Assembly (NCBI GenBank): GCA_001724265.1
Contig: MEDY01000114.1
Location: forward strand, 1 to 64,000
DNA from: Rhizaria sp. SCN 62-66
Lineage: Eukaryota
DNA: 64,000 nucleotides
Direction of reading: 5' to 3'
Shown here: in pieces, positions 1,161-64,000 of the stretch
How the letters are laid out: every line of letters begins with the position of its first letter
How positions within the stretch are numbered: the first letter of the stretch is position 1
The notes under the pieces: model-generated
Database searches by the model: none
Told to the model about the DNA's origin: nothing
What the model saw: only the letters and a program-made list of their open reading frames with translations
Translations under genes and position numbers: made by a program

Positions 1161-4136
1161 TCACTGCTGGCCGACACTGGCAGCGGCGAGCGCGTTGCCA
1201 TAGCGTCCCCAGACGGCCTCGAGCGCGGCGCCCTCGTCCTCGACGCGGTCCAGGTCGCGGTACTGCTTCCAGCCACCGCCCGCGAGCGTGGGCGCGTCGG
1301 CCTGCAGCGGCTTGCACCGCGCGCCGGCCGTCGTCGCCGCGCGCGCGTGCTGCGACGACCATCCCCCGCGGCGCCGCGCCAGCCGCTTGCTCTCGCGCAC
1401 GTCCGCGCCCGACGCGCCCGCGCCCGCGCCCGCGCCGGCGTGGAAGACGTCGCGGTCGCTCTCAACTGCACTGCGGCCCGCCTTGGAGCTGTTACCGCTT
1501 GTGTTGTTGCTCCCCAGCTGCGAGGTCTTGGCACTCGCGCTGTCTGCGAAGACGTACCCGCGGTTCTCGAGGTCCAGGTGGCGGAGCACGTTGAACTCGT
1601 CGACGCCGCGGCGGCCGAGCCGCAGCGCGCCCGCGCGCCCCTGTCCCAGCTGGTGCTGCTGCTGCTGGTGAGGCTGCGCGTCGCCGCCCCGGCCGCCGGC
1701 GCCGGCGCCGGCGCCGGCGCTCGCGCCGCCGCGGCCGGCGCCGGCGCTGCTGCTGTGGCGCCAGGCCGTGCGGTGCGAGGCGGCAAAGCTGGTTGCGTTG
1801 GCGGTGTCGAGGTCGGGCGGGGACGAGAAGAGCGCGCGGCGGCCCGGCGGCAGAAGCTCGTTGCTCTGCTAGCCAACGCTTGCTCGTGGGTGTTCCCAGC
1901 CGCCCTCGCGCTCCGCCAGTCCGGCCAGCGCGCTCCACGCCGCGGGCCGCACCAACGACGGGGGCATGTCCAGCGGCGCGCCCGGCGCGCTGCTCAGCCC
2001 GAGCAGCAGCAGGGCCGCGTCCGCTTCGCGCCCCGAGGCCGTGGAGGAGGACGAGGCGGTGACGACGTTGGCCAGAGACTCGCGCAGCGCCAGCGCAGCG
2101 CCCTGTGGGAGCGAGAGAGGATTACAAAGCAGAGCAAATGGAAGGCGAGATATGAGATTATTGATAAAAATCACAACTATATACTGGAAGATGCTTATTT
2201 AAAAGCTAAATTGAGTGTGCTTGTTAAAAATTCCTGAGTCGTACCTGACTTGAAGAGCGGCAGATGACCTGAGTGGCGGGCGGCTCCGTCGAGAGCGACC
2301 CAGCGCCGCCGGCCGCCGCGCCCGCGCCCGCGCCGGCCCCCGCGCCGGCCCCGGCGCCCGTGGCCGTGCTGTCCCTGGCTGCGAGCACGAGCAGGCGCTT
2401 GGCGCGCCGGGCTGCGAGCGCCTCCTGCCGCGACAGTCCGCGGGGACGCACGGGCTGCGAGAGCGGGCCGGGGGGAACGCCGCCGCAGTCGCCGCCGCAG
2501 CCGCCGCTGGCGCTCGCGCCGGCGCCGGAGCCGGAGCCTGCGCTGGCCCCGCTGTGCGGCGCGCTCCACCCGCGCTCGCGGGCCGCTGCGCGGGAGTTGG
2601 GCGCCGCCGACACGCGCAGCGCGGGCGCGCGCACTGCGGTCGACAGCGCCGCAGCCGACACGGCACCGCGCACGTTGCTGCCGCTCGCGTCGCCAGCGCC
2701 GTGTCGGCCGCCGCGGCCGCTGTTGTGGGCGGAGGTCGCCGGCCGCGCCATGGCGCGTACGAGGGCGCCGCGCACGGGGGAGCCGTTGCGTTGCTGTTGT
2801 TGGGTCTGCGCGAGCGGCGCGCCGTGCGCAGCAGTCGCGCGCCTCTGCTTGCTGCCGCCGCTGGGATGATGCACGCTGAGCCCCATGCGCTCCCGCCGGG
2901 CGGCGGCCTCGGCGGCCACGGCCTCGGCGTGCGCGTCGCCCAGCGCGCTGGCCAGCTCCTCGGGCCGCATGCGTACCGCGGCGGCCGCGGGGGGCAGCGC
3001 GGCCGCCAGCGCCGCCGCCGCCGGGAGCGACCAGCGGCCCGCGCCGTGGCCCGCGGCGGCGCCGGACGCGTGGCCGTGGGTGCCCGCGGCCGTGGCGGCG
3101 GCGCCGGCGGCGGCGTCCGCGGCCAGCGCGAGCAGCACGCTCTGCTGCTGCGGCGGCACGGCCGCGGCAGCGTTGTACGCGCCGCCGCCGACCACCGCGG
3201 CCGCCGCACTACTGCTGGTACTACCGCTGCTGTGGCTGCTGCTGCTGTGGGGGCCGTTGGCGGGGTGGTTGGGGTCGCTGAAGTAGGTGCGCAGCGCGGC
3301 CGGGAGGAAGCCGTTGTGCGCGGAGCCGGTGCCGGTGATGCCAAAGGATCCGTTCCACTCGCGGGGCGCCTCGCCGCGGCCGTGTCCGGCCCTTTCAGTG
3401 CCACCAGAAGCGTTGGCGCTGGCGTTGGCGTTGGCGTGCGCGTGTGTGTGAGTGAAATGGGACATGACGCCCCGGCCGGTGGCGGCGTGCGCGGCCGCGG
3501 CGGACGCGGCGTCGGTCGGCCGCTCCAGTTCCAGCTCCAGCGGGTGCCGGCCAATCCCGGCCGCAGCGCCGCCGCATCTGCCACTGCCGCGCACATTGGC
3601 GCTGGCGGTGCGAGGGTTGTTGTGGTGCGCGCTGAGCGCGGCGGCGGCGGCCGCGTCGGCGTAACACGAGGCGGGGGCGAAGAAGGCCGCGGCGACGGCG
3701 GCGGGCGCGGCGGATGGCAGCGTGCGCGCAGTCTGGTGGCGTGTGGGCGGCGGCGGCGGCGCGGAGAGGTCCCGGTCGCCGTTGTCGCCCCCGCCGGCGG
3801 CGACGATGCTGGTGATGCTTGCGTTGGTGTCCGAGGCCAGGTCGGAGAAGTAGTGGCGCCGCGCGGGCGGCAGCACGAGGTTGCGCTCTGAGGGCGAGGC
3901 GGCTGTGGCGTCCCACGCCTTGCCGCCCGCGCCGGCCGCCGCGCTGGCGCTGACGCTCAAGCCGGGGCTGTCGCTGCGGCAGCGGCTGGCGGCGACGGGC
4001 GGACCCAACGCGCAGTCGCGGTGGGACAGCCGCGACGACGGGGGCTACTTCAGGTGCAGCGTCGACGCCGGCCCCGCGGTCTGCGCGCGTGCGTGATGCT
4101 GGCCATGCGCGGGAGGCCGACTGCTGCAGTCGGCGG

Positions 4137-10600: not shown

Positions 10601-13600
10601 AGTGCGCAGGCAGCGGCACATGTGCGCAGCGCGCGGACAGCATCAGCGTCAACGCAGACTCCGACTCTGACTGGTCGTGGGCAGTGAGCTTAGCGTCGAT
10701 CTTAACAAAGGCCAGCGAGGGCGCGCCGCGGGTCACAACAACGGCGACGCCGGGGCAGCGCGCGCGCACCACACGCACGGTGGCTGCGGCGTGTGCACGC
10801 GCGGCGCTGAAGCCCGCGCGCGCTCCCGCGGCTGCGACGGCAGCGCGCGCAGCGGCGGCCCAGGCGTCGGCTGCGGGCGTGCTGTGGTGGTCACACGCGG
10901 AGGACACAAAGGCGCAGGTCTGTGCACGCGCGCGACGGGGCGCGGCGTGCGCAAGAGCGCGTGACAGCGACTGCGCTTGAGAGTGACTGTGAGCAGCAGA
11001 CGCAGTGGCAGCGGGGTGGCTGTGGGTAGCGACGGGGGAGAATGGGAGCGTAAAGGTGGGCACTGGCGCAGCGAGCGGCGAGCTGCTGGTGTTGTTGTTA
11101 TTGTTGTTGCTGCTGTTCGCGTTCAGAGCAGGGCTGACAAACTCCGGCGCGGTGAGCGTGAGCGTCGATGTGAGCGGGTCAAACACAACGGCGATGTTTA
11201 CAGCACCCGCAATCAAAACACTGTTGTCATTATCAACACTGTCCGATGTAGGGGCGTCGGTGGTGTTCTTGCGGTCGATGGTGGCAAGACACGGGAGCAG
11301 TGTGAGAGCGGGGAGGCCGGCGCCAACAGCAAGCATCACAGGATCGACTAAGTGGCTCTCTGACTGACCCTTGGGCAAGACCGAGTGCTCAAACACGGTG
11401 CCTAGCGTCACTGTCGCAGCGACACTGCGCACAGCAGGGCTGGGAGATAATGCGTACGAGTGAGCGTCGTCATTGTGGCAGTTGGTGGCGTCGACAACGG
11501 TCGCAAGCGCGAATGGCAGGCCAGTCGCCAACGCTGCACCCGCCGCCGGAGCCACTACACCGCCCTTGTTGCCGCTAGCAGCGCTGCTGTTAGCGGCGGC
11601 AAGCGCGGCGTCAACGGCGTGGTGCAGCGGTAACACCGACGCGCCAATGCGCTCAGCACTGGTCCCAAAGAAGGGCGCCTCGTACAGCGCGAGTGCAAGC
11701 GGCGCAGTGTGAAGCACGTAAACGAGCCCGTGCACTGCACCCGTGATGCACGAGAAGAAGTCAACCCGCGGACTGACTGCTGTATCGCCCTGGCTGCGGA
11801 TTTCCGGGGGCGCCACGGAGAACACCCCGGAGTCGGCAAACCCGGGCCCGCGGAGGAGGTCCCGCGGCGGCGCGAGCGCGGTGGCGACCAGCCCGACGGC
11901 GCGGCACGCGGGGCGGCGGTACAGGCCCCAGTCGCTAACGCCTAGCCCGGGCCGGCCGGCGAGCGACAGAGCCTGCTGGCCGCCGCCGCCACCGCCGCGG
12001 CCGCTGCTGCCGCTGCTGCTCGCTGCCGTTGTGGAGTCGAGTTTAAAGTCGGCGAGACTGCTAGCACCATCACCAGCGTTGGTATTCGTGTCATTGTTGC
12101 TGCCACTGAGGCTCTCGCTGCTATTGGTGCCAACGCTGTCGCTGTTATTGGCAACCGTGGGCGTAAACGAGGGCGGGTCGAGCAGTGCGGCCGTGGTGGC
12201 CGCGTGCGTGCGGAAGGCGTAGAGCACGAGCGGCTCAGAGTCGACGGCCGCTGTGCGCTCGTCGGAAGTTAAGCCGCGCAGGGTCACCGCGACGGGGGAC
12301 GCCAGTGCAGTGCCCGTTACATCAGTGGCAGCAGGGATGTGCGTGGAGCTAGAGGTAGACGCAGGGCGCAGAGCGCGGGGACGACTAAAAGAAAGAATTA
12401 AAGCGGAACAAATTGAGTGAGCGAGAGCAAAGAAATATGGTCATTCGTAGTCCAGACGATGATGCAGAGTTGTGTTGATATTGTTGCTCAGCCTACCTGT
12501 TGCGTTGCATCTACATGCCGTTGTTGCTGGAGTTAGTGCCGGCAACAGGCGCTGCGCGGAGCACTGTCGGCCCATTGCCTTGCGCGTCGCCGGCAGCGCC
12601 ACCGAGCCTGGCGTTGAGCCTGGGCGCGGGCAGCAGCTCCCCGAAGACGGGCTCCGAGGCCTGCTTGCCCGCCTGCCGCTGCCGGAGCATCATGCGCGCC
12701 GCCGCAGCGGCCTCGCGCTTCGCCGCAGCCTCCTCATCCTCGGCGTCGTCCTGCTCAGCGGCGCCGGCGTCTCCGCGCTGCGCTTTGGCAGCGGCGCGGG
12801 CGGCGCGCGCGGCCGCGACGGGGTCCAGCGCGGCTTCGGCGTCAAAGTCGTGCTCATCAGCCTCCTCCACGCTGCGCGCCGCGATGGCGGGCGGCGGCAG
12901 CGCGATGCCCGCGCCCGCAAAGGCCTCGGCGAGCTTCTGCTGCAACGCGTTGTCGTACGAGTCGAACGACAGAATGCCCTATTCAAAGACAAAGAAAAAC
13001 ACGACGGTACAAACATGAAACATGTTGTTTTAAAATTAAAATTTAATGTACAAGGACAGTTTAGTGATGCAATTTGTGAAGATTAGGGGTTTCTTCATAG
13101 TCGTACCTGAAGCACCGTAGGCAGGGGGTCCAGCGGGTTTGCGTGGAGGTGCCGGGCCGTCTGCACAAGCTCACGCGTGGAGTACGGGTAAGACACAGTG
13201 CCCTGCTCGTTCAGTGCGCGCAGCGCCGCAAAGGCGCGCACGAGGCGGTCGAGCGTATCCTGCGGCAGCGAGGGCGCGTAGGCCTTGAGCAGCGCGGCCT
13301 CGGACGCGGGATCGGGGTTGTCCACGACGTGGCACGCAAAGCAGTCGCCCATCTCGGCGTAGAAGTCGTTGCCCAGGAATGGGTACCCGGGCGGATTGGC
13401 CAGCGCGATCACCTGGAAGCCGCGGTGCACGCGGTACACGCGGCCCGCCGCCGCGTCGCCCGCGGGCGACGACGAGTCGCGGCTGCCCGCGGGCGCCGCG
13501 GCGGCCGTGGGCGCGGCCGCGGCGTCCTCCGCGGTGGCCCAGAGCGGGGAGCGCTCGGTGACAAAGCGGCGGCCGTCGCCGAGCAAGATCTCGCCGTCCT

Positions 13601-18015: not shown

Positions 18016-21000
18016 ATGAGTTCCGCAACGTCCTCATCGTCCCAGGCGCTGGGCCGCTTTCACGATCTGATGGTCGCGTACCGCGACACAACTGACGTGA
18101 GTACCGCGCAGAGTGTCCTGCGCACCATCGCCGAAGTGTCGCTCACGCAGCACCCGGCGCTGTTCCGCGACTTGTACCTCACGCATGTTATTTCCGATAG
18201 GCACAGCATTGTTAACACGACGCTGCGCTCCAAGATTGCTATCTCCCCGCTCATCGTTGACGTCACGCGCCTGCTGCTGCGCATCGTCAACGCTTTCACC
18301 GGCGGCTCAGGCAGCGGTTCCGGCTCCAGCAGCGGCAGCAGTACCGGCGCCAACAGCGCCACGGCGGCCGAGCTGCTGCCGTTTCTGCCTCGCCTTGACG
18401 CCTACGCGTCCCAAATCGCGTCCATGAAGCCGTCGTCGTCGACGCAGCGCCAGGACGCGCTGAAGCTGCTCTAGGCCCTGCGCGCCACCGGGCTCAGCTG
18501 GACCCCAGAGGCGCCGCACCTCGCCCCACCAGCGCTGCTCTCGCGCCTGCTGCTGGACCTGGACGCATCGCGCCGGTCCGTGGCCGAGCGCACGACGTGC
18601 GCGGCGCTGTTCCGCGTGATCGGCGCCCTCGCGCGCGCGCACCCAGCGGCCATGGCGCAGGATGGCCGCGCGCAGACCTACTTCGCCACCGCGGTCACTG
18701 AGCTCGTCAACGCGCACAAGCGCGACGCCTCGGGTGTTGGCGAGCGCGCGCTGTTCGAGGGCATCCTGCGCGGCGTCGGCTCGTTTCTAGCCGAATTCCC
18801 TGAAGTGCTGCAAAACACGGCCTCGGTCGACTTGGCCGGCGGCCGCGCCGCGCTTTCGGTCGCCCCGCCGCGCAACTACTCCAACAGCAACCAGAGTAGC
18901 AGCATTGCAGCCCAGCAGCAGCATCAGCGTGACGCGGCGTCCGAGGCTGCGACCGCGGCCGTGGTGACTGCGTTCGTGCAGCTCAACAGCTGCAACCCCG
19001 CTCTGGGCTTCACCATCGACGACGGCTCCTCCGCGGACGCGTCGGCACAGGCGCAGGCGCTGAACCCCGCCGCGGCGGGCACGCGCGTGAACCCCCGCGC
19101 GCTGCTGCTCAAGTCGGCCGCGATGCTCATCCACGTCGTGCGCGTGGGCACGGGCAGCGGCAAGGTGTTCCGCTACGAGCCCATCATCGTGGCCGCCCAA
19201 TTCATCGCGCGCCACGCCGCGCTCATGCCGCAGGAGACTGTCTCGCACTTCTCCGTGCTGACAGGCGAGCTGGAGGAAGTCGTTGTCTGCCGCTACGCGG
19301 ACGCGCGCACCGCGGCCACCATCGCGCTCGAGGCGCTGCTGCACCAGTACTCTCAGTCCGCGCTCGCAGCCTGGACCGCGGCCCGCGGCTCCGGCTTTGG
19401 CTCGAGCTCTAGCGCATCCGCCGCTGCCGCCGCAACCAGCGGCCACGCTGCCGGCGGAAGCGCGGCGTCCGCGAGCGCGGTGCAGGCCGAGGTGGATGCC
19501 AAGGTGCTGCACTACCGCCGCGAGTTGCGCGACGCGACGCGGCGCCTGGCCGAGGGCACCGCGGCGCCCGCACCCTTCGTGCTCACGGCCCCCGCGGCCG
19601 CCGCCGTCTCCGCGGCCGCCACGGCAGGTGCGAGCGCGGTGGCGAGCGCGGCCGCGGCGGCGACATCGTCGAGCGTGCACGCGTCGGTGTCGGAGCTGCT
19701 GCACAGCGCTTCCGTGGCCACACGCGCGCTCGGCCAGCTGGCCAAGGTGCTCGTGGCCATGCGCGGCGCCGCGCTCGGCGAGCTGCTGCTGCAAGACCTC
19801 GAGTCGGCCGCCGAGGCAGTATTCTTCGGCTCGCCGCAGACAGCGGATCTGGCAGCGGGCCACTTCGCTGCGTATTTCCGCGCGTTCTCGCTGGTGTTGC
19901 TGTCGCTGCCCAGCGTGGAGCAGCGCCACTGCGAGTTCGTTGCGCGCCTCGTCTTCCGCTTCGTCACACTGTTCCCCGCCATCACGTCCCTGCGGCGCCG
20001 CGCGGTCGAGTCCCTGCTGGGCCTGCTCGCCGTGCTGGCCGGCAACGAGGCGTTGCTCGCGCTCGTCCTCGACCGCGTGGTCCCCCTCGCTTTCCTGCGC
20101 GCCACCGTCTCGCGCACAGACGCACAGGCCTTGTTCACGCCCGGCGGCGGCGGCGAGTCGCAGGACGCCAACATCATGGCCGCGGGCCTGGGCGGCGCGC
20201 AGCAGGGCGAGGACGGCGCCGTGGTGCCCCGCACGCTGCCCTCCGCGGCCTCGCGCCTCATCTCTGCGCTCACCCGGTCCAGCGCTATCGCGGCCAACGC
20301 CGACGCTAGCGGTGCGGGCGCCGACGGTAGCGACGGGGGCGACCTGGGCGGCGACAGCGGCGGCGGCGTGGCCTCCGCGGCTGCCGCGGCGCTGTGGTTT
20401 GCTCCTGCCGCCTCGGCGGCGTACCGGCGCTTCGTGCCTTACAGCGCCAACACGCGGCCTTACGCGGCGTACGTCGACCTCTGGCTCTCGCTGCTGACTG
20501 GGCGCGACGACCGCGGGTACACGTACCGGTGGTCCGAGGGGCTGATGCTGTCGCCCGAGACGGCGGCGCAGCTGGTGCGGGCCGCGCAGCAGCGTGTGTT
20601 CGATGCCATGCTCTCCGTGTGGACGCAAACGGTGCCCAGTCTCGAGCTCGCCCTCGTGGTGGTCGACGAGGAGAGCCAGGCCACGCTGGAGCTCAGTCAA
20701 GCCGTTGCGGCGCGCGGGGCAGACGGTCAATACCAGCCGGGGTCGACGCAGGGCGCGCTCTCGGCTAGCAGCAGCTTCTCGTTCAACAACGGCAACAACG
20801 GCGCATCGCTCGCCGCCGCAGCCGCTGTATCCACTATCATCACTAACTCCAGCTCCGGCTCAAGCTCTGGTTCAGCCGGCGGGGACTGGGAGGGCGGCGG
20901 GGCTGCGGGCGTCACCGGTGTCGGCGCCGGCAGCGCTGAGGACGTGTCGTGTTTTACTGTTGACCCGCGCAACATCGCGCCACTGTCACCGGCGGACCTG

Positions 21001-30000: not shown

Positions 30001-33000
30001 AACTCTGGTACTTTCACTGCAGGTTCCTTTACCAGTGGCAGCAGCTCGACCACGAGCAAAAACGCACATATAGCGCGGCCCAACGGCGGCGTTGGTCTCA
30101 ACGGTTTGATTTTCGACCCACGCCTCTATCAGGCCTCTGTCGCGGGCGTGGGTTCAGTGCCCGCATCAGTAGCCTTCATCGTGCCCTCGAGCTAGACCAC
30201 CGTAGCCGCACAGTCTGCTGCCCCCGACGCGGTTGTATCTCTGGCTGCCGAGCCCGCGCTGCCGCCGATTGTGGTGTCGTTGCTGCCCGGCGACGCCCCA
30301 CGCGCGCAGGACGCGCCGCTAGACGCGTTGGATCTCAGCACGCTGTTCTCGGATCCCGACGCGCTCAACACCACTGCCGGCGTCGAGGCGGTTACTCGCC
30401 ACGCGACCGCGCTGGCCGCGCTGTACCCCGATGCGTACATGACCAACGCAACGGCGCCTACGCTCCGCGTCGTGCTCGCCGGCCTCAATCTCAACAGCAG
30501 TAGCAACAGCAGTGCGTCTCTGGCGCACCCGCCCGGCGCCGCCCGTGGCGCGCGCTGGCTCGCTGCCAAGACTGTTCTGAACCTGCCGCAGCTGTTTGCA
30601 CCCTTCGCAGCCGAGCTATTCACTCCGCTCGCTCTGCTGCTGGCGGCGCCTGAGAGCGAGACTGGTGCGCGCGGCTTCCACTACTTGCTGCGCGATATTG
30701 TGTTTCTGTTCGTGATCGAGTGGCGCGACTTCGTGCCCAGCCCGGAGCGCCACGGGGCCGCCGCCACGGCCCTGCTGCGCAGGTTAATGGCGTCCGCCGG
30801 CGACTACGACGGCGACCAGCGCACGAGCCGGCTGCGGCAGAACCTGCTGCTGGTCAAGATCTTCACGGAGAAGTTCCGCGCGTGCGTCAAGTACGACGCC
30901 CGCGTGCTGCTCGCGCACATCAGCACGCAGGAGCCGCGCCGCATGGTCGTCCACGCGACGCCCGACAAAAGTAGCGCTCACGGTGTCGGTGTGAACCATG
31001 CTCAGTCAGCTTTGGGCGCGGGCGCGGCTGCCAGTAAGGTCAAGACCGAGCCCGGCACTGCCACAAGCACCGCTCTTAGCAATGTCGTGTACACAGTAAC
31101 TGTGGAGACTGATCCTGAGGTTCTGCGGGATCCTTTCTGGACAGCAAGAAGCAGCGCTCCTAGCAGTAGTGTTAACTTCGTCAACGATGGTTTCGGCGCG
31201 CTTCCCGGTACCCTCTCTGCAGAGATTATGCGCGCGCTGACATTCCCCGTCACCGTATTCCCCGACCGCAACGCCGGCTACTCGCTGTTCAATCTCACTC
31301 AGGCGCTGACGATCTCGCCGCTGACGCCGATGCTGCCGCACTCGTTCCGCCCCGACCGGCCGCCGAAGCCGTTCCCGCCCGTAATCATCCTCTGCGAGAC
31401 GGCGTGCGGCCACCTGTCGTCGACGCTGCGCACTGTTGCCTCCGCTGCGGCTGATGTCCTCGGCCTCGCCATCGCGCGTGCTCATACCGCGTTGCTTGAC
31501 CGCCGCCGCACGCTGCTGCAGCTTATGACCGCACTGGACCGCGAGGGCGGCTTTGCAGCGCGCCTCACCAACGCGCGCGCGCAGGCGCTGACTGAGCGCG
31601 TGGCGGCCGCGCGCGAGGAGCTGGCCGGCGCGATGAACCGGCAGCGCCTGCTCACGGACCGCGTGCGCACAGGCGCGGCGCGCGCGCTGACGACGCTCGG
31701 CCAGGCCGGCGGGCGCGACGGGCTGGGCACTGCGGTGGACACGGTGTGTCGCCTCGCCATGCGCGCCTACGCGCCCACGCTTGCGCGCGGAGACAGGAAC
31801 GCGCCGCCGCTGCTTGTGATCAAGAGCATTGGCAAGGATGGCGCTGTCGACTCCGCCGACGTGGTCGCCACCGCCGATGCCGCGGCGGCCACAGCAGCCA
31901 GCATTGCTGCAACTGCTACCAATAGCGGCAAGCCATGCTCCGTGACTGTGGACGCTGGCGGCTTCACTTTGATCAACGGCGCGCTGTTGATGGAGGTCGC
32001 ATCGCTGCCGCTGACGACGCTGTCACAGGGTGCATTGCGCAAGGTTGTTGCGCTCGTCCGCTACGGCGCTGCCGCGGAGGCCGTGCCGACGACTACTGTG
32101 ACCGCGAGCACGCCCACCGCCGCGGGTCCCGCTGTCGGCGTGAGCACGGCTGCGACCACGAGCTCCCAGGTGTCGATCACGGACCTGCTCGTGATGGTGC
32201 GCAAGCTTATTCCCGTCGCGTTCCCGCCGCCTACGCAGGCTGCGGCGAGTGTGACTGACGCGGACGCGCAGTGCGAGACGCTGCTGTTCCTTCAGGACGT
32301 GCTGCGCCGCCTCACCACCGGCTACTCAGAGTCTGTGGACCAGGGACTCTCGCATTCGTTCCACATGGATGATCACGAGTCTATTGCAGCCGCCCCGGTT
32401 GTCACTGATTTGGCCGCGTACCACGAGGTGCTTTCGCTTTTGTTGTCGTCAGCTGCTCCTGTTTGTGGCGTTCACGTCGACCCACGCCTCCGCACCGCGC
32501 TGTTCGATGTGCTTACGTTCGTGCACAACACGTACCCCGACTTTGCGCCGCTGCGCGAGGCCACGGCGGCTCTCAGTGCGGCGGCCTCTGCAGTGCCGCC
32601 CGCCGTCTCTGCGAACCCGTGGGCTGACGTGTATGCCTTGCGCGCTGCTGCATCGACGGCTGTGGCGCTTGCCAACGCCGCGAAGAATGACGCCATCGCA
32701 GTTGATGCTGACGGTGCGGTTGCGCCTACTGGTGGGATGCGCCACGTCAACAGCAGCGACTCCGGTCCGTTTGCTGCTGCTGCGGCCACTGCTGCGGCTG
32801 CGGCGACTGTCGCAACTGCAGCGGCATCTTTCCTGTGTCAGCCGCCGTCGTCTGCCTCTCAAGACACCGTCACGGCGATCTCGACCACGGCTGCCGGCTT
32901 GTCGCCGCTGTGGCTGGAGCCCTTCCCGCAGCTGCTACGCGCGGCCGCATGTGTGGCCAACTCCCCCGTGGTAAACGCTGTCACTGGCCAACTCTTTGCC

Positions 33001-42000: not shown

Positions 42001-42747
42001 AGGCTCGGGCTTGCCAGGTACGTGATAAAAAATAACTAAATCTATTATATTCCTCTTCTTCTCATGACTCGAATATCGCATTGCACTTTACTTTCTCTGA
42101 ACATACCGCTTTATAAAATATTTTGCAACACACCACGATTGATATGTAACACAACCGCTCACATCCAACTCAACCGCTCTTTCTATGATTTCTCCATTTG
42201 TCCCCTCAGGGCGAAACTCGAAGGCGCTGATCCCGTGTGGATCGTGCGCCACGACATCCAAGACAGCACGCCCTGCCGCCAGTTTACGCCCCACCCCAGC
42301 TACCGTCTCCCGGCCCACGCGATCCCTGCCCTGACGCAGTCCGCCGCACAGTTCGGGCTGCTGCGCTCGGCGGGCGGCGCGGCTGCGAACGCGAACGTGG
42401 CGCTGGGCCCCGAGCTGGCGGTGCGCGGCGTCGTGCGCCTGCTCTCAGCCGCGGCGCATCCGGAGCGGCTCGGCCAGCCGGGCGCATACCTTGCCAGCAC
42501 GGGCCGCAGCGCCGCCGTCCCCGCGGGCGCCACCACGGCCGGCGCGGCCGTCGCAGGCGCGGGCCACACGGCCGGCGCGGGCGACGGAATCCGGTTCGCG
42601 GACCGTGCTGCCGCGGTGATCGACTGGGCCTTCGCGCCGCAACCACCGCGGCTGGGCGTGCGGCAGCAGATTGACGCGCTTGTCAACATGGCCAAGGACA
42701 CACAGGTGCTCGCCAGGGCCTACGCCGGGTGGGCGCCGGCGGCCTAA
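18016..42747 (+). CDS. PRKDC: DNA-dependent protein kinase catalytic subunit (PIKK), ~8,179 aa; exons 18016-42017 and 42210-42747; internal TAG at 18472 and 30193
   Basis: LLRRYRAGDVPD, VEVPGQYD, SMRRPRRI, FLLKAGEDLRLDVRVQQ, YILGIGDRHLENIMID...AIDFGHAFGNATIVLPIPELVPFRFTRQ, spliced ARAKLEGADP, FATC QQIDALVNMAKDTQVLARAYAGWAP. These are DNA-PKcs-type rather than ATM/ATR/TOR. ORFs 17908, 18580 and 30271 share one frame separated only by single TAGs; TAA stop. Confidence 0.92.
18472..18474 (+). other. In-frame TAG in PRKDC, probable sense codon (Gln)
   Basis: AAG CTG CTC TAG GCC CTG CGC (DALKLL*ALR); frame continues for ~3,900 codons. Confidence 0.75.
30193..30195 (+). other. In-frame TAG in PRKDC, probable sense codon (Gln)
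   Basis: CCC TCG AGC TAG ACC ACC GTA (PSS*TTV); no AT-rich gap or pyrimidine tract; frame continues ~3,940 codons into the kinase domain. Confidence 0.8.
42018..42209 (+). other. Spliceosomal intron (PRKDC), 192 nt
   Basis: AG|GTACGT...tcccctcAG|G, phase 2, AT-rich. Confidence 0.9.
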
Positions 42748-44543: not shown

Positions 44544-47500
44544 ATGCGTGCCCCGCCTGCCCCGGCTGCGGTGCCCCGTCGCGGCCGCTCGGCCGCCGCC
44601 GCCGCAGCGGGCGCGAACGCAAACGCGGACGCGGCTGACGCAGACCTCGACCAGCTCCCGCCCCCGTTTGGCCCCAACAACGCCGACGTCGCCGCTGATG
44701 CAGAGTATCAAGAGCAAGAGCTTGAGCAGGGCCAGGAGCAGGAGCAGGACCAAGAGCAGCCTCAGGACGAAGAGGAGGACTACGGCGACGACCCGTTCGG
44801 CCTCGGCATCGCCCCCGACAACAACAACCAGCAGCAGCAACACCAGCAACAGCAGGCTGCCAGCTAGGACGAAGACGAGGACGATGACGGTCCTGCTTAC
44901 ACCAACCCCAACGACGTGACCGACAGCGAGGACCGCGCCGCGCCACTGCCTCGCGCTCCCGCCCGCGGCCGCGCCGCGCCCCGCCCACGGGCCTCCTTCG
45001 GCGCGCTCTCGCCGGTGCCCGCGCCCGCCGTCAGCCCGCGCGGCAACCGCGACCACAGGAACCTCAGCGACCCCAACGCACCGGGGAGCGGCCTCACGCC
45101 CGCTGCCGGTGTGAGCAGTGGGATCTTCACGCCCCCCGGCGCACATGCGGCCACAGCGGGCGTCGGCGCCGCGCTGGGCGGCGTGCGGGGCTTCTCACCC
45201 TTCCCTCAGCAACAACAACAGCAACTCCAGCAGCTCCAGCAACAACACCAGCAGGCGACGGCTAGTGCTGGGCTTGGTGGCCACGGTCAGGCGGCCGCGG
45301 CGTCCGCCTCCGGCTTCGCGACCGTGAGCGCCGCCGGCGTCAGCGCTGCCGCGGGCTCCGGGCGCGAGTTCGCTGTCTACGCCTCCGACAGCCCCGCCCA
45401 CGGTCACCCTGCCCACGGTCACAGTCACTCGGCGTACGGTCGCGCGCGTGCCGGCCCCATAGGTGCCGCAGGCGTACCCGCAGGTTCTGGTGCGATGATG
45501 TTCGCGTCCCCGTCGTCGTCGGTGGCCACGTCGGTCGACCTGAGCCGCATGCAGTCGCCGCCGGAGACCCCCTTAGACGCGCCCGGCGGCTACTTACATT
45601 TCTCCCAACAACAACTGCTGCAGCAGCGACAGCTGCACGCGCCGCTGACGCAGCAGCAGCTGCTGCAGATGCAGTACACGCAGCCACGCGTTCCGGGCCT
45701 CGGCGCGCTGGGCCCTGGGCACGGCGCGCAGGGACTCGACCACAGTTTGCAGCTCAGTATGCAGCAGGCGGGGGGCAGCGAGGCCAAGGAGCACTTACAC
45801 CGGGATCTAAGCGCCTCGTTCTCGTTCGCGGCCGAGACACCGCCACACCCGCCTGCTCCCGCCCACAGCCACTTTTTACAACAACAACTGCAGCAGCAGC
45901 AACAGCAACAGCAGCAGAGGTCCGGCTCGAGTGCGAGCGCTGCAACCCCCGGCGTCAATGTCAATCTCAACTTCAGCACTGCCAGCAGCAGCAGCAGCAG
46001 CTACAGTCTGCGCAGGCAGCAGATGCCCTCCGTGTACGACGTCGTGGCCGCCGCATTCGCGCCGGTCACCTCCCCCGCCTCGTCCTCGGCCTCGGCATCA
46101 GCATCAGCTTCTGGCGCTGGCTCTGGTGCTGGGGCGGCTGCGGCGATGCAGCGTGAGGCCGAGGCTGACGCGGACGCGGCGGCCGAGGCAGCTGCTGCGG
46201 CCGCCGTGGCGCACCATAACCGCGCTCGCAGCCGCTCCTCTGCCCAAGGTCTCTTGGTCGCCCACGGTCACTCGGCTGCCCACGGTCACAGTCCCCGGCC
46301 AGTGACGCCCCCGCTCGGCACCCCGCCCACGGTCCCCGCCGCCGGGGCTGGGGCTGCTCACGGTCACTACTCGGCTCACGGTCACCCTGCCCACGGTCAC
46401 CCGGCGCGGGGCGGGCGCGGCGCCGGCGGCAGCACTCGCCGTGCAGCGAACCCCCATAACAACAGCAACAGCGATGGGTACAATGACCAGCAGCTGTTGT
46501 ACCGCCGCCCGAGCCCGCCCCTCGACAGCGCTGACCGCAACCGCGACCGCAGCCGTGGCCGTGACCGCATGCAGGGTGACCGTGGGCTGGACCGCAGCCG
46601 CAACGTGGCGATGGCGCTCGACGCGAACGACACCGCAGTGGACAGCTCGACCGGCGGCTTCGGCGGCGGCGGCTTCGGCGGTGGCGGCGGCGGGGGGCTG
46701 GGTCGGCTGTCGTTTGGTAGCGACGTGTTCAGCCACAACGGGGACGGCCGCGGCGCGCAGGCACACGGACATGAGGAGGAAGAGGAGGAGGGGGAGGGCG
46801 GCGCGTTTGCCCCCGCTCACGGTCACTCCGCCGGCGCTGCCCACGGTCCCCAGTTCGTCGCTAGATTCACCCCGTCGAGCGGGTTCGCCACTCAGGCACG
46901 CCGCCCTGGCGCCCACGGTCCCTCTGTCGCTGCCCACAGTCACGCTGCGTCGGACCTGTCGCCCGCCACGCCCCCCGCCGTCGCCGCGGCCGCTCACGGT
47001 CACTCTGCTGCTCACGGTCCTCACAGCGCCTACGGTCACGCCCACGGTCGCGGTCCGGGCGCCCACAGCCGCGGCCGGACTGCCGCGGTGCCCGCCAGCG
47101 CCGCCAGCAGCGCGGGCGGCGGCCTTAGCAACCACGGTGGCAGCGCGGCGGTGTACGACAGTCCGGCGCTGTCGCCCGTGGCGCGCCCCCGCCTCTTCAC
47201 TATGGGCAGCAGCGGGTCGTCCTCGGCGGGCTCGGCGGCGTCCCCGGCGGCGGTCACCCCGCCCGTCGCGAGCGCGGCTGCCGCCGCAGCCAACGCGCAT
47301 GACATGAGCGGCGTCAGCTTCGGCGCCGGCAGCGTGCTCGGCAGCGGCGGCTTCAGGCCGTCCCGGCTGCGGCTCTCGCTCGCCGGCGACAGCAGCTTCG
47401 TCAGCAACAACAGCAGCGGCAGCAGTCTCAACTCGAGCGGCGGCCTCAACAACAGCGGAAACACGATCGGCGTCGGCAGCGCCAGCGTCAGCGGGATGGG

Positions 47501-50500
47501 CATGGTGACGCCGTCCGCCCGCCTCGTCACTATGGGCGCGGGCGACTTCCCCCGCCTCGTTGCTATGGAGCCCGGGGACTTGCCGTCGCCCTCGCACCTC
47601 ACCGCGCGCGCCCGCCCGCGCTCACGTCAACAACAACAACCGCAACAAAGCTCTGCTGCTGCTGCTGCTGCTGCTGTTGCTGGTGTCGGCGCAGACGCTG
47701 CATCGCCCCCCTCGCCGTCGATGTCCGGCGGGGGCGTCACGCCGCGCCGCCGCCGGCCTCCCACCGCCACAAACGCCGCCACGAGCGCCGCCGCCAGTGC
47801 CGGGCCTAACGCCGGCGCCAACGCCAGCGCAAATGCACTCGTGAGTGCAAATGCGAATGCGAGCGGGCGGGGCCGGGGGCGCGCGTTCATGTTCGGCGCC
47901 GAAGACACCCCGCAGACCGCGGCTCAGCCGCGCGGCCGCGCCGGGAACGCGGCTGTGCACGTCAACGAGAGTGTGGCTGTGAACGCGCAGCGGCAGCTAA
48001 ACCTGAGCGCGGCGAGTGACGGCAGCAGCGACGGTTACAGCTTCGCCATGGCGACGCCCGTGGCCGCCGCCGCCGTTGCCAGCGCCGCGGCGCAGTCAGC
48101 GAGAGCGGCGCCGGCGACTGGAGCCGGAGCCGGTGGCGCTGCTGCGGCTGCTGCTGCTCACGGCCACTCTGCGGCGGCGTCCCCATCGTTTTCGCACGTG
48201 TTCACGCTCGACTTCGCAGACTCGGCGCCGTCGACCCCCGCGTTCGCCGCGGCCGGCGGTCACGGCGTGGCCGCTGCGGGGGCTGGAGCTGGGGCGGCGA
48301 GAGCTGCCACGACAGCTGCAGTGCCTGCGTCAGGCATCACGCCCTCGAGCAGCAGAGGCAGTGGCAGTGCAGGCGTCGGTGCCAGGGCGAGCGCAGGCAT
48401 GGTTGACTTGCCCCTGCCCACGGTGACGCCGTACCGCCCCTTCAACAGCAACAACACCACGGCCGACTTGGACACAGAGGCCGGCGCAGAGGCGGAGGCA
48501 GATGTTGCGGTTGTGGGTGATGAGGGCGACGGCGGCTTAGCTTCGGTCGTGGCGCTATGTCTGGCGACGCTCGCGGGCCACCACCCGCGCTTCGACCCGT
48601 CTAGGTACCCCCTTAGCGGCGGCGCGGACGCGGGGGCGCCCGAGTACGCGTACACGGCGCAGCAGCAGCGCGCGCACACGCTGGAGCAGCGACGCTCGCT
48701 CAAGCGACAGCTTAAGCAGCAGCTGCGCGAACAGCTTGCGCAGCAGCAGAAAGAACAACAACAGCAGCAGCAGAGTCAGAGTCAGGCTAGCAGTGAGCGC
48801 GAGCTAGAGCTGGAGCTAGAGCAGCAGGTCGAGGCTGAGCTCGCGAGCCAGTGGCCGCAGCAGCTGCAGCAGCTGCAGGAGCAGGAGCAGGACGCCGCAC
48901 ACGAGCAGCAGGAGCGACTGCAGGAGCAGGAGCAGCTGCAAAAGCTGGGGCTCGACCAGCCGGGCGAGGCCGGAGGCTGGTGGCCCTTACACGCGCTCCA
49001 GGAGCACGTAGACCAGCTCGGCTACGCCGACGACGGCGCAGATGACGCGGCTAGACTTCGGCGCGCGCACGCGGTTTCACTGCTGCACTCGGTGATCAAC
49101 AGCCCCCTCGCGCGCGCGCACCGCCGCCACCGCGGCTTCCTGCTCTCGTGGCGCGGCGAGCTCCTCGGGGCCATGGCGGCGCTGCGCGCGCACGGACTCT
49201 CCCGCGCCGCCGCCGCGCTGGCCTCGCTCGTTGCCGACTGCGAGCAGGGTATCGAGCGCTCCTTCGACTGGGTCGGGCCCGCGGACGCCGACTGCGAGCG
49301 GCAGAGTGACTGTGAGCGACAGCTGCTGCAGCAGCGATGGGCGCCCGGGGAGCTGGAGGCATGGGGCGAGAAGGAGCTCGAGGAAGAGACCAAAATCGGT
49401 ACGATTGACTGACATATGCACGACCAAAAACCCCCCTTCATCATGATGTTCAGAATGACTTTCTTGTATTTATTCTGTTTTGATGCAAAAAGTTCTCTCC
49501 CATAAGACTCTTATCTGCCTCTTATTCTCACTATATTTCTCTATGTTGCTGTCTTTTTCTCACTCTTCACAGCGGCCCGCGCCCCGCGCACGTCCCCCGC
49601 GCTGTGCGAGGCGCTGTCTCGGCTTGACTGCGAACCCCGCCGCGCGGCGTGGCTTTTGTCCTCCGCGCTCGCGCACTCGCACAGCCAAACGAACGCACAT
49701 CACGCTAACGCAAACACAAGTGTTGACAGCGCCCACAACGTGAACGGCTTCGCTGGCGGCGAGAGCGAGACGAAGGAGGAGGACTTGGAGGGCGACTCGC
49801 TGGCGGCCTTACTTCGAAGCATCGAGGTGACCGTGGTCGAGGACGAGTCCCTTGCCGAGTCGTCACCGGCCGCGTCTAACAGCGGCGCCGGCAGCAAGTC
49901 GGGCTCACGTGGACTGAAGCGCGGCCGCAACAGCAACGGCAAGGGCAGCAGCAGCGCGAAGGCGAGCACGAGCGGCAGCGGCAGCGGTAGTCCTCTGTAC
50001 GCCTCGCAGTCGCCCTACTCGGACGCCGACGCAGAGCCCGCTGGCGCTCTGACTAGGGACGCCACTGAGGCTGAAACTGAGACTGTGGCTGAGACTGCCG
50101 AGCAGCGTGAGCAGCGTGACACGGAGGCGTTCGTGCTGCTGTTCGCGCAGTTCATGTGCGGCGAGGCCGCGCGGACCAAGGGCGTGCTCACGCAGCTGTC
50201 GCAGAGGGGCGCCGAGGTCCGTACACGATCGATATCCGATATCAACAAACATATTTACCGTCGCTCTGCACGATGACGATTTGAAACCTAAATCTTGATT
50301 ATCGTCGCTGATTTCTTGCTTGTTCTCACCTTTTACATGTTTCTCTTATTCCTATCTTGTTCACTCCCCCTCAGCCGTGGAACCCTGAGTTGCCTAGCCT
50401 GACCCACCGCCTGTGCCTCCTCACCCGCACGTCCCCTTCCGCCCTCACTGAGGACGCCCACTCCAGAGACAGCGGCCTTGACCGTAGCAACAACAGCGGC

Positions 50501-55849: not shown

Positions 55850-56572
55850 ATGCTTGCTCGTACCCTCAAGCGCGTCTCCACCGCTGTCCCCGCGGTGTCG
55901 TCCGTCGCTGCGCGCACCTTCGCCTCCGGCGGCCACCCTTCGATCAAGACCAACTACGCTGACCCCAAGCTCCAGGACTACTACGCGCAGACCGCGAAGC
56001 TCGGCGGTGTTGACCAGTACAACACCACTGACGGCCTTCTCGAGAAGAACATGCTCGACTCGTCCTACCCCGACACCCGCCCCATGCACTACATCGCCCT
56101 GAACTCCACCAAGGCCATGTACGCCGGCCTCGCCCGCGCCGGTGTGTGCAAGCTCGTCGCCCAGATGTCCGCCTCGGCCGACGTCCTCGCGCTCGCCTCG
56201 ATCGAGGTCAACATCTCCGGCTTTGCCGAGGGCACTAACACCACGGTCAAGTGGCGCGGCAAGCCCATCTTCATCAAGCACCGCACTCCCGCCGAGATCG
56301 CGCGCGCTAAGGAGGACGACAAGGCCGTGCTCCGCGACCAGGAGGCCGACTCTGCCCGCGTCGTCGACGACAAGTGGCTCATCGTCATCGGCATCTGCAC
56401 CCACCTCGGCTGCGTCCCCATCCCCGGCGCCGGCGAGTACCCCGGTGGCTTCTTCTGCCCCTGCCACGGCTCCCACTACGACTCCTCGGGCCGCATCCGC
56501 AAGGGCCCCGCCCCGCTCAACCTCGAGGTCCCCGCCTACAAGATGAACGGCGACATGCTCACTATCGGCTAA
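55850..56572 (+). CDS. UQCRFS1: Cytochrome bc1 complex Rieske iron-sulfur subunit, mitochondrial, 240 aa
   Basis: Arg/Ser/Ala-rich presequence, [11 protein letters not shown] hinge, [21 protein letters not shown] and CPCHGSHYD 2Fe-2S boxes, [18 protein letters not shown] stop. Confidence 0.98.
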
Positions 56573-59108: not shown

Positions 59109-62100
59109 ATGAGCTACCCGCACACGCAGCCGAGCCTTGCGTCGGCGATGAACACGTCTACCTCGTTTGAGCTGGACCCCAGCAACCGCGTGCGCTTCGC
59201 CCCCACGGACCAGGTCTACCCCATCCCGTCCGCGCTCAACGCCTCCTCCGTCAGCAACTCCAGCTTCAGCGGTGGCGGCGGCGGCGCGTACGGGGTAAAC
59301 GCGAGTTACGGCGCCGCTGCGCTTCCCGTGCCGACCGGCGCGCTTGCTCAGCAGCAGCAGCAGCCACAGGGCTACTACCCCGCCCCGCGTCCCCCGCTCC
59401 CTCTGTCCAACTCTGCGGCGACCGCGGGTATGCCGCCGGCGCTGACGCGGCCGCAGACTGGGCTGCTGCCGGTGCCCATCGGCATCATGGCGGCACCCTT
59501 TGCGCTCCCGGGCGCGGGACCGGTCCCCAACCCCGCCAAGGCGCCCCTGGCCTCGACCACGTACAACGCCAACGCAAACGCCAACTACAACAACTACAAC
59601 ATGCAGCCGCAGCCTCAGCCTCAGGCGCAGTATTACTACAACCAGGCGCAGCCGCAGTATCCGCAGCAACAGCAGTATCCGTAGCACCAGCAGCCGCAGC
59701 TGCTGCCCCAGCCCTCCGTCCCCGCGCCCCCCTCTGGCGGCAGTGGGGTGGTTGTCATGGGGGGGCGCCTCGTGCGAGTGCCGGTGCCCGCAGGGGCAGT
59801 GGCGCTGCAGCAACAGCAGCAGCAGCAGCAGCAACAGGCGATGGCTCAACAGCAAATGATGTGGCAACAGCAGCAGCAGCAACAACAACAACAACAACAG
59901 CTTCAACAACAGCAGCTGCAGCAGCAGCAGCAGCAGCAGCAGCAGTACTTACAGAATGTAAGTGACGTGTCTTTCATCGCCCCCGCCCCGGCCTCCGCGC
60001 CATGGGAGGCCGACGCCGCCGCGCCCAACGCCTTTGCTGACTCAGCCGCCGCCGCGGCTCACGGTCACTCTGCTGCAAAGCAGCAGGCGCACTACGTGGG
60101 GCCGGACGGGGCAGCGCTGTATAACGACAACAACCACGGCAACACTAGCAGCGGAAACGACCCCGAGAATGAACCCACCGCCGGCGCCACCCGCGCCGTC
60201 TCCCTCTTCTCCAAACCTCAGGCGCAGTCGCACGCTCCGTCGAAACCGCCACCGCCGCCCGCATCCCGGACGGGCAACCCGTTCCACTCGCTGCACCAGG
60301 CGCTGCGCCCCGCGCTCACCGCGGTCGCGCCGATGCGGCTGCCGGCCGCGGCTATGGCGTTTCTGCGCCGCGCAGCCGCGCGCGCATTGCTGCCCGCGCC
60401 TTCCTTCGCCGCCGACGCCGCTACTATGGGCGGGGCGGGGGCCGCGGGCGCGCTCACGCCCTACTACCTGCACATTGACGCTGTGACCGGGCTGCGGCTC
60501 TTCAGCGCGATGCTCCGCGCCTCAGCCGCCACGGCAGCGACCAACTCCACTGCCGCGGGCGGCGCCGGCGCCACCGCCGCTGCGGCCGCGGCGGCGGGGG
60601 CGCTGCGGGGCACCCTTAAGCCGGAGTTTCTGTACTGGCGGCTTAACTTGTCGCTCTACTCACAACGGCACCGCACCTTTTTCGGGCGCACCTGGGAGAG
60701 CGACGAGTACTGCGTCGCCACTTACCCAGAGGTGCTTACATCCCCGTCCCACACTGCAAGCCCTTACCCTGCGGTTGGCGGCCAGTTCGGCGCGGATGTA
60801 GGTACCCCCGGCGGCGATGTAAGCGCCCCGCCGCACACGGCGCGCCTCCCGCCGATCGGCGTCTACTACTACAGCGACATCCACTCGTCGCAGTGCTTCG
60901 CCGTCGCCGAGGTCGTGCTCACGGTCCGCCTCCCCGGCGCTGCCCCCGCCAGCGTCGCGCTGGGCTGGGCCCCGCTGGCCGCCTTCGCACCCGTCGGCGG
61001 GCACGCCGGCGCCGGCCCCGCCACCGCGCTCCCGGGCGGCGCGCAGGCGGGCGGCTTCCCTTCAATGAGCGCCGGCGCTGGCGCTGAGGACCCCAACGCG
61101 AGCGCGCTGCTCGCCAACGCCGCGGGGGGCGCCGGGGGCGCGTTCGTGGGGTTCGGCGCGCTGCCTGACGTCGCTGACCACCTAGACACGATCTCTTACG
61201 CCGGCAACCGCGCCGCCGCCGCCTTCTCGGCCCTCAGCAGCAACGGCAACGCGAACGCGAGCCTGGACATGTCTTTCAACACCGGCGCGGCCGCGGGCGG
61301 TGGCGGCTTGGCTTCCGCGCCGCCGCGCATGACGACTGTGCCCCTGTACCGCGGCTCTCCTCGCGCGTTGCTCTTCGCGCACAACCCGGTCCCGCGCGCG
61401 CTCAACTCGGGCGGCGGCGCGAACTTGGGCAGCTCCGCTCACCCCGTCGACGCCTACGGCAACCCCCTCCCGGGCGCCGGCGAGGTCATCGCCCTCAACA
61501 GCAACGGCGGCGGCGCGGCGCAGTCCGGCGCCGGCGGGGTGACTCTGGCGCAGCACGCGTCGTGGGACACGACGTTCCTGCACGCGCACGACATGCGGCT
61601 CAGCTTCCGCGTCTTCCGCTGCTCGGCGCTGCTGCGGGTTGCCCATCTGTTTCGGCCCAACGAGTTTGTCGCCGCCGACGGCTCCGCGCGGCTCGCGGGC
61701 CTGCCCCCCGTGCTCCAGCTCCACGCCCCCGCCCCCGCCCATAGCACTGAGGCGGGGGACGCCACCGCCGCCGCGTCTGCGCTGTCGCTGCTGCCTGGTG
61801 TGCTGCCGCCGCCGACGCACCTGGCGGCATTCGCGCGCGCCGTGCCGCTCACCCACCTGCGCGTGCGCGCGCCGCGGCTGGCGCTGCCGGCGCAGCTCGA
61901 GCCGCGGCTGCTGGCGGTGCTGCACCACCACCGCGCGCTGTTCGTCACCGCGCCCTCTGCGCGCGAGCGGCCCGTCGTCGTGGCGCGCGCGCTGCGCCTG
62001 GGGCTGCACAACGGCCGCCGCTTCGTGCACCTCCCCGCGCGCCTCCCGCTGACCGTGGCCGCGGCCAGCAGCGGCGACGTCGCGGGCACCGGCGCAGCCG

Positions 62101-63638
62101 CCTGGGACCCCGTGACCGTGAGCGCCGCGCGCAGCCGCGGAGACATCACGGCCCGCGGTAACGGACAGCAACAGGGACGGCTTAACTTCGAGAGCGAGCT
62201 CGCCAACGCGAATAACAACTTCAACAGCGGCGGCAGCGGCGGCATGGCGACTGCGCGCGGTCTGCGCGGCCCCGGCTCCGGCCTCGACAACCTCGCCGCT
62301 CTCGCGAGCGCTGCCGGCGCTAGCGCGGCCGGCGCCGCTGGTGCAGGCGCTGGCGCACTGCCAGTGGAGGACGGCGGCGTGGTCGCCGCTGCCGGCGCGT
62401 CCACATCGTTCCCTGCCTCGTACACCAATAGCGGGAACAGCAGCAATGGCGGGGGCGGCAGCATGGCGGACGGCAACTATTACGCCGACTCGCCCGCGCT
62501 CGACTTCAACACCGGCACGAACAATCCCTTGAATGGCCACGCTGTGACCGCGGCGGGCGGCGGGTTCACGGTGCTGCAGTGCGAGGGCGTCAACGCCGTG
62601 GTCGAGGGCGTGCGCTGCTCGCTGGCCGAGCCCGAGGCCGTGGCGCTCGTCGCCGAGCTTCAGTACGACGTCGCCTGGGTCGCCGAGGCCGCCGAGGTGA
62701 GCACTTACACGTCAAAGTACGGCGGCGCCGCGGGCGGCGCGGGCAACTCCAACGCGCTCATGGCCGCGGCGGCCGCGGGCGGGGCCTTAGGTGCCAGCGC
62801 CGCTCTGGCCGGCGGCGGCGGCGGCGGCGGCGAGGGCGAGACCGCGGGGGGCTACCCGGTAACGACCATCACGATCGCCTGGGGCATCCAGCTCATCACC
62901 ACGCGCAACATGAATGCCAACACCAACCCTGGCTCTGGCGCGAGCTCTGGCGCTAGTTCTGGCGGTGTCAAGACGGGAGCCGGCCCGGTGTGCGTGGCGC
63001 TGCCGCTGGACGACTCTGTGGTCGACATCCCACTGCACCGCGGGCCCTGCCGCTCGCTGTCGGGCGCGCGCACCTACGGCTACTCGACGCTGTTCGAGGC
63101 GCTGCACCCGCTCGTCCGCCGCGGCGTTGTGCTGCGCGCAGCGTTTCAGTCGCCCGCGCACGCCGCCATCGCCGCCGCCGCCGCCGGGGAGCTGCCCGCG
63201 CCCGCGGCCGGCGCCGCTGCGACGCGTGACAGCGGCGATGGCGGCGACGGGGTGCCTGTGGGCAGCGAGGGTGCGTGGCAGGGCGCCGACGCCGACGGGC
63301 AGTACCGTGGCATTGCCGCGCTGCGCAAGCCCAACAGCGCGGGCGACGACAACAACAACAACAACAACAAGAACAGCACTGTTGACAGTGCTCGGGCCAG
63401 TGGCAGTACTGGCGGTGTGTTGAAGGCTGCCGAGGTCGAGGTGGGCGCTGCGGCCGCGGCCGCACGCGCTCAGGCCGTTAGCGCTGCCCACGGCCACGGG
63501 TTGCAAATCGCGCTTGGCCCCGCCGCCGCGGCCGGGAACGGCGGCACGGTCACGCACGCGGCGAATAACAACGCTGCGAACGCGCTCGGGGCCAAGAGTG
63601 TCACGAAGACGCAGCGGCGCCGTCAACCGCAGGCACAG

Positions 63639-63670
<32 letters not shown>

Positions 63671-64000
63671 ACAACAGCCGATGCAGCGGGGCGTGAGACT
63701 TGATGCCGGTAACAGCGGCAACAGCGGCGACGGCGGCGTGAACGACAGCATGCTGGGCGGCAATCTTTCTGGCATCTACCCCAATGTGCACAACAGCTAC
63801 AGCAACGACAACAACTCGCTGCAGCTCTCCGCTGACAACAACCGCAACCAACAGCAGCAGCAGCAGCAGCAGCAGCAGAACGCCAACAGCAGCAACCTGT
63901 GGCCCACGCCCAACACCAGCAGCGCCAACAACAACAACAACAACGCCGCCGCCGCCGCTCCAGCCCCGATGGCTGCGCCCGCGTACTCGCACGTCCCCGT
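59109..64000 (+). CDS. NPHP4: Nephrocystin-4 (ciliary transition zone), 5' part, runs off window end; internal TAG at 59682
   Basis: Manual translation beyond the TAG: WRLNLSLYSQRHRTFFGRTWES, YYYSDIHSSQCFAVAEVVL, PLYRGSPRALL, HLFRPNEFV, ARALRLGLHNGRRFV. These match the NPHP4 motifs FFGRTW, LYxGxPRALL and LRxGxHNG. Confidence 0.88.
59682..59684 (+). other. In-frame TAG in NPHP4, probable sense codon (Gln)
   Basis: CAG TAT CCG CAG CAA CAG CAG TAT CCG TAG CAC CAG CAG CCG CAG; TAG occupies the CAG position of a local repeat. Confidence 0.85.
59808..59945 (+). repeat. CAG/CAA poly-Gln tracts in the NPHP4 N-terminus
   Basis: Q10 tract, then a 27-codon tract interrupted by two Leu codons. Confidence 0.9.

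Follow-up and report, generated by a model that had tools for sequence, protein, structure and literature searches.

The window analysed, 64,000 nucleotides long, is the first part of a contig (C114:1-64000) of a eukaryotic assembly of 34.9 Mb in 714 contigs. Towards its end lies an NPHP4-like reading frame (59109-63998, + strand) that starts with an ATG at 59109 and is still open at the end of the window. The N-terminus is of low complexity and contains an in-frame TAG (59682-59684, +) at codon 192 counted from this ATG, with C2-type domains encoded downstream of it. The TAG ends the second of two four-codon units within a Gln/Pro/Tyr tract (59655-59684, +). Both units of the repeat reported for 59641-59700 in a preliminary description of this DNA were present, CAG-TAT-CCG-CAG at 59655-59666 and CAG-TAT-CCG-TAG at 59673-59684, but they stand two codons apart rather than adjacent. 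NPHP4 is a plausible name for the predicted product: ESM Atlas leads for the frame ranged from 0.86 to 0.90 and included a 'putative Nephrocystin 4' (0.89) and, at second rank, a 'nephrocystin-4-like' protein (0.90), and the label came partly from what we take to be NPHP4 motifs; Pfam and PDB, however, returned no NPHP4 match for the part of the frame inside the window, the 3' part of the gene running beyond it. It had been argued that a true stop would leave a domainless peptide of ~190 aa. All NPHP4-like motifs do lie downstream of the TAG, but an in-frame Met at codon 217, after the TAG, also precedes every one of them, and the 59682 site alone is therefore no proof of readthrough. Among the contig pieces listed from aligned runs, none bridges 59682.

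Three other TAGs cited earlier (1869, 12511 and 44865) were all confirmed to be in frame and three more were found in the window (18472, 30193 and, on the minus strand, 4047). The TAG at 44865-44867 (+), in a 1600-aa low-complexity protein, has a Gln tract on one side and an acidic tract on the other. A single contig of run X3, a possible source of the assembly, covers the site with 0 differences. The TAG at 12511-12513 (-) belongs to an AAA_5 gene, presumably VWA8-like, in which it occupies an internal exon 15 nt ahead of a GT-AG intron; the exon ends at this 112-nt intron and then rejoins the downstream frame. Of those at 1869-1871 (-), in an unnamed GC-rich frame, and 4045-4047 (-), in an unnamed low-complexity frame, the former failed the filter for coding-like sequence on both sides and the latter had a weak downstream coding score. 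Two TAGs fall in a DNA-PKcs-like gene, one near the N-terminus (18472-18474, +) and a second at 30193-30195 (+), and this gene ends in a TAA (42745-42747, +), an example of UAA kept as a stop, as does the Rieske iron-sulfur protein gene (56570-56572, +). The DNA-PKcs-like gene (18016-42747, +) is about 8000-8200 codons long with one apparent intron, inflated by low-complexity Ala/Ser/Gly insertions to what we take to be roughly twice the size of the animal protein.

The window was scored together with 183 further loci of the same genome, a set that covers about 1.03 Mb including overlaps, or ~3% of the assembly, and in which loci for kinases, dyneins, helicases and tRNAs are over-represented. 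The coding model used had been trained on long frames free of stops in these same sequences. One locus (L186) with long repetitive frames of odd composition was excluded from training. Stops with coding-like sequence on both sides comprised 33 TAG (one false by eye), 2 TAA and 4 TGA, and a stricter cut left 26 TAG and no TAA or TGA. Where coding-like sequence ran up to a stop, non-coding-like sequence came next for 70 of 77 TAA and 43 of 45 TGA compared with 6 of 34 TAG, and inspection placed one of these six TAGs within an intron, four as internal and one as ambiguous, leaving no clear terminal TAG. TAA was the commonest terminal stop and was essentially absent internally. In-frame TAG was found within conserved coding sequence of eRF1, UBE2J1, kinases, an ASCC3/Brr2-type helicase and the DNA-PKcs-like gene. 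TAG is almost certainly a sense codon in this genome, while UAA and UGA, judged by the same patterns, are still terminators of translation.

Under the standard code these TAGs would have to stem from misassembly, from nonsense changes in genes undergoing decay, from the ends of introns or from RNA editing, which we consider very improbable. Many TAGs flagged within domain matches did prove to be 3' splice sites, and decay is possible at one kinase locus (L124), where a TAA also occurs in frame ahead of a Gln tract; this locus belongs with L125 and L126 to a related kinase family rich in in-frame TAG, two of them with SEL1-like repeats nearby. Errors or nonsense changes would, however, give rise to TAA and TGA as well, against the 26, 0 and 0 observed. 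The TAG in eRF1 is also present in a DNA contig (L136) of 100% identity that was assembled separately, although contigs of this kind may themselves derive from the source samples; TAG is gone from gene ends, and a cognate tRNA exists. A-to-I editing as the general reading is excluded, the conserved columns being Glu and not Trp.

TAG is very rare. It made up 26 of 208,400 coding-tile codons after eight intron-edge cases were dropped, equal to about 0.27-0.3% of Glu codons, and none of the 58,440 codons of the dynein loci was TAG against about 10 expected (P about 4e-5). This rarity suggests that UAG may be decoded inefficiently. Dynein genes, considered as a source of conserved TAG sites, contained none internally, those seen being intron ends. 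Searches with kinesin, DEAD, ABC and a second kinase family gave no new internal TAG among the sites inspected, two of which were splice sites, and added one new kinase match (contig C208). The standard code truncates genes of this wastewater protist, as with P0300, which starts after a TAG.

A gene for a tRNA with a CUA anticodon was found at C84:76008-76080 on the minus strand (L034:1489-1561), with GC-rich coding regions on either side; kinase and kinesin genes are found on the same contig. The tRNA scored 58 bits against the Rfam tRNA model, with a cloverleaf, a 4-nt variable loop and a T run downstream, and was one of two matches to a generic CUA-anticodon tRNA pattern, the only one of the two that is a tRNA. 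Thermodynamic folding was unremarkable (z -1.5) and its identity as a tRNA is carried by Rfam and ARAGORN. Outside the D-loop the tRNA(CUA) agrees with the organism's own tRNA-Glu(CUC) at 43 of 64 positions (acceptor stem 11 of 14) and has the same T-stem, compared with 28 of 64 (acceptor stem 2 of 14) for its own tRNA-Gln(CUG). The margin was smaller in a plain global alignment (47/73 with both Glu tRNAs, 46 with Met and 41 with Gln(CUG)). By these positions the tRNA(CUA) is of the tRNA-Glu type. At least eight pattern matches were obtained for tRNA-Glu(CUC) against one copy of the tRNA(CUA). No tRNA with a UUA anticodon was seen among the 30 of 43 tRNA-pattern matches scanned, a set that intron-bearing or unassembled genes could escape, and an early tRNA-Gln-like pattern that gave no match was too specific to be informative. 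The anticodon loop of the tRNA(CUA) has A37-A38 where the own tRNA-Glu has A37-C38. A38 improves amber suppression.

Conserved alignment columns also pointed to Glu. Motif searches for TAG at invariant residues were uneven, with eight Glu patterns, three Gln patterns and one for both residues, and yielded a single genuine match. Among the Glu patterns, four had 0 matches, one had nine (three inspected, all spurious), one had three (all spurious) and a further one had 12 against 12 in the control, while the three matches to the APE-type pattern were one genuine, one of low complexity and one with an in-frame TGA. The first Gln pattern gave nine matches against 13 in the control (two inspected, both in the wrong frame or strand), the second three, all spurious, and the third 36, two of them with TAG and neither RCC1-like by eye; the pattern for both residues gave 10 DTAGQE motifs, none with TAG. 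No genuine invariant-Gln site with TAG was thus present among the four patterns covering Gln.

The genuine match is in an NEK-like kinase on contig C182 that reads GTPLYYAP*LC (asterisk, TAG), with the TAG at the APE glutamate. Alignments to fetched kinases place E in this column in 114 of 117 cases and Q in 0 of 117, and own kinases have E there in 23 of 23; the kinase itself could be inactive. In eRF1 the TAG aligns to human Glu107, a column with E in 106, D in 10, V in one and Q in none of 117 homologues. The single Val belongs to the closest relative, P0004 (84% identical eRF1), and the site is therefore relaxed in this lineage; Guttulinopsis eRF1 has E there in the supplementary alignment (PMC5304391, supplement 4). 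The UBE2J1 column is mixed (D57, S14, E13, N9, T9, H6, G5 and Q0 of 113 residues, with 7 gaps among 120), a TAG in a kinase hinge faces Asp in both close paralogues, and the helicase column is variable. Summed over six columns, the log-odds were +6.6 to +6.7 for Glu, -4.2 to -8.2 for Gln and -6.9 to -10.6 for Leu, and without the motif-selected APE site they were +4.0 for Glu and -1.6 to -4.1 for Gln. The 4-nt variable loop of the tRNA(CUA) also goes against Leu. Leu, Tyr and Trp were all far below Glu at the aligned columns, which bears out the preliminary description in its argument against these three residues. The same columns, together with the tRNA-Glu type of the decoder, speak against the rest of that argument, which had spoken against Glu and named Gln: at the two best-conserved positions, in eRF1 and at APE, TAG aligned to Glu.

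The case for Gln came from local context. About six TAGs, 59682 among them, are in or beside Gln tracts, and a neighbour-residue test over 32 sites put Gln about 13 log units ahead of Glu overall. Nearly all of this lead came from three to five poly-Gln sites; taken singly, 20 of the 32 sites leaned to Glu and 12 to Gln. The base before TAG was slightly more CAG-like (-39.9) than GAG-like (-43.8), with all T-starting codons at -41.3. One kinase column leans to Gln (Q6, K4, V2 and E1 among 17 close homologues), and in paralogue pairs TAG stands opposite Gln in one and opposite Asp in another. Glu-like local contexts include EP*PELESENE, DDDD*GD and AAS*DEDEDDD, the 44865 site, offered earlier as support for Gln, being itself Glu-like in the neighbour test. 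UAG could accordingly be a synonym of CAG, read either by a tRNA of Gln type that the assembly lacks or by a Gln-charged tRNA(CUA), and UAG=Gln with UAA as a stop is known from Iotanema and several ciliates in the available text of two studies (PMC5304391, PMC11687900). We regard this reading as decidedly unlikely here. The acceptor stem of the tRNA(CUA) is of Glu type; an intronless own tRNA-Gln with CUA would, by inspection, fit the CUA pattern and none was found; Gln occurs at 0 of 117 eRF1, 0 of 113 UBE2J1 and 0 of 117 APE positions; and the four Gln-covering patterns gave no genuine site.

A CAG-to-TAG change is a single transition and Gln-to-Glu is tolerated in linkers, so local context would record codon ancestry, while invariant columns and the tRNA would record meaning. 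A local repeat would then reveal the codon from which a TAG mutated (CAG, by one C-to-T) and not how it is read, and local repeats can thus misname a reassigned codon. We infer that the TAG at 59682 is read as Glu and probably arose from CAG. A real recoding was noticed first in this tract, and the amino acid named for it was probably wrong.

One eRF1 gene was found in the assembly and it carries the in-frame TAG at C63:103463-103465 (L001:1594-1596, -), so that synthesis of the release factor depends on UAG decoding. The protein has T32S and G57S, substitutions of residues kept by 117 of 117 homologues, as well as T58K, with L69 unchanged. As described in the available text of PMC5304391, Thr32 bonds the G of UAG and Iotanema has T32G, and the alignment there has G57S with T58K in Tetrahymena and T58K also in standard-code ciliates. 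The P0004 eRF1 shares T58K and keeps T32 and G57, and P0004 may represent the state before the code change. Negative feedback through the TAG in eRF1 is a speculation, and chance placement of this codon is not unlikely.

We consider it probable that the nuclear code of this organism reads UAG as Glu and keeps UAA and UGA as stops. In the proposed mechanism a copy of a tRNA-Glu gene would have changed C36 to A and would still be charged with Glu, and the resulting tRNA-Glu(CUA) would outcompete an eRF1 that binds UAG weakly through T32S, with G57S and T58K. Slow or leaky decoding of UAG would keep TAG rare, and the TAGs in poly-Gln, including the one in NPHP4, would be tolerated Gln-to-Glu substitutions that arose by CAG-to-TAG mutation. 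Alternatively, UAG might be read ambiguously as Glu and Gln, perhaps partly terminating, as an intermediate stage of code change, with a Glu-type tRNA(CUA) partly mischarged by glutaminyl-tRNA synthetase or in competition with a near-cognate tRNA-Gln(CUG). TAG occurs in Glu columns as well as in poly-Gln tracts, its scarcity and its absence from the dynein loci fit such a state, as does the single tRNA(CUA) beside the tRNA-Glu(CUC) matches, and E. coli tRNA-Glu amber suppressors insert some Gln. Ambiguous reading is nonetheless unlikely in our judgement: the lack of a clear terminal TAG among the six candidates means that UAG is no working stop, TAG sits in eRF1, for which one gene was found, and the poly-Gln sites are explicable without dual reading, GAG being present 111 times in Gln-rich contexts.

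The organism is likely to be a divergent cercozoan, perhaps a sainouroid. The best named homologues of its eIF4AIII were from the rhizarians Plasmodiophora, Amorphochlora, Paulinella and Gymnochlora, but a quick tree, in which no named sainouroid was included, put the query among unnamed rows, on a long branch. At least six rare eRF1 residues (V34, V38, F85, E99, V114 and M126, by eye) are common to the query and Guttulinopsis where most homologues differ. Four group I introns interrupt the very divergent, AT-rich 18S rRNA gene (L135:1501-5945), and the first insertion, a long one, may contain an open frame, for instance for a homing endonuclease. The organism is set apart from the ciliates and trypanosomatids with UAG=Glu by its ordinary GT-AG introns and its terminal TAA. 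Runs with matching DNA were wastewater and bioreactor metagenomes, the three best of which may be the source of the assembly. In part of the Rieske gene (55927-56224, +), many differences, most of them spaced by three bases, separate the window from contigs of runs X4 and X6, which suggests that these samples contain a related species.

It is rare for a nuclear code to treat UAG differently from UAA. The literature searched, mostly open-access, contained no case of UAG=Glu in which both UAA and UGA are stops. In the available text of PMC11687900, the reassignments listed for UAG alone are to Leu, Gln and Ser, and UAG=Glu appears solely in combination with UAA=Glu, as in peritrichs, or UAA=Lys, as in Oligohymenophorea sp. 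PL0344 (PMC10553269). As described in the accessible part of that report, PL0344 likewise reads UAG as Glu, with tRNA-Sup(CUA) genes most similar to tRNA-Glu, but this ciliate has UAA=Lys, UGA as its sole stop and 10 tRNA(CUA) genes (PMC10553269), in contrast to the predominance of UAA among stops and the single tRNA(CUA) found here. Blastocrithidia is similar in UAG=Glu and in a tRNA-Glu(CUA) derived from tRNA-Glu (PMC12153298). It differs, as do peritrichs (PMC11687900), in that UAA is also Glu, internal TAA being absent here at the strict cut, and its change is tied to GC loss in the available portion of PMC12153298, whereas the coding DNA here is GC-rich.

Among the UAG-only cases in the accessible parts of PMC5304391 and PMC11687900, Iotanema spirale, Hartmannula, Trochilia and Protocruzia tuzeti read UAG as Gln, the TARA phyllopharyngean MAGs as Leu and Scotinosphaera as Ser, unlike the Glu proposed here. 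Iotanema also alters eRF1 at Thr32, by T32G compared with T32S here (PMC5304391). UAG accounts for about 8% of Gln codons in Iotanema and occurs in 78-91% of phyllopharyngean genes, in contrast to its rarity in our data (PMC5304391, PMC11687900). A likeness in stop usage is also seen in exLh, a rhizarian of the Sainouroidea and possibly of the same clade, in which UAG alone is reassigned and UAA and UGA are stops; there, however, UAG is Leu and eRF1 carries L69A, compared with Glu, an unchanged L69 and T32S, G57S and T58K here (PMC5304391, as far as its available text extends).

If the Glu reading is true, the pairing of UAG=Glu with a UAA stop would constitute a new code, and the GC-rich genome that uses it would not fit the route through GC loss suggested for Blastocrithidia. 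The rarity of TAG means that the genome may show reassignment at or near an intermediate stage, and ambiguous-intermediate and codon-capture models are therefore testable here. If the sainouroid placement also holds, one small clade would have changed UAG twice, to different residues. A fuller scenario, quite unlikely in all its parts taken together, is a second, independent UAG reassignment in sainouroid cercozoans (Glu as against the Leu of exLh) caught early, with one tRNA-Glu(CUA) in competition with an eRF1 that retains some recognition of UAG, and with the TAG in eRF1 closing a negative feedback loop.

Within the window, a short AHGH(S/P)A-type peptide is repeated many times in two unrelated low-complexity proteins, encoded at 44544-49412 and 59109-63998.
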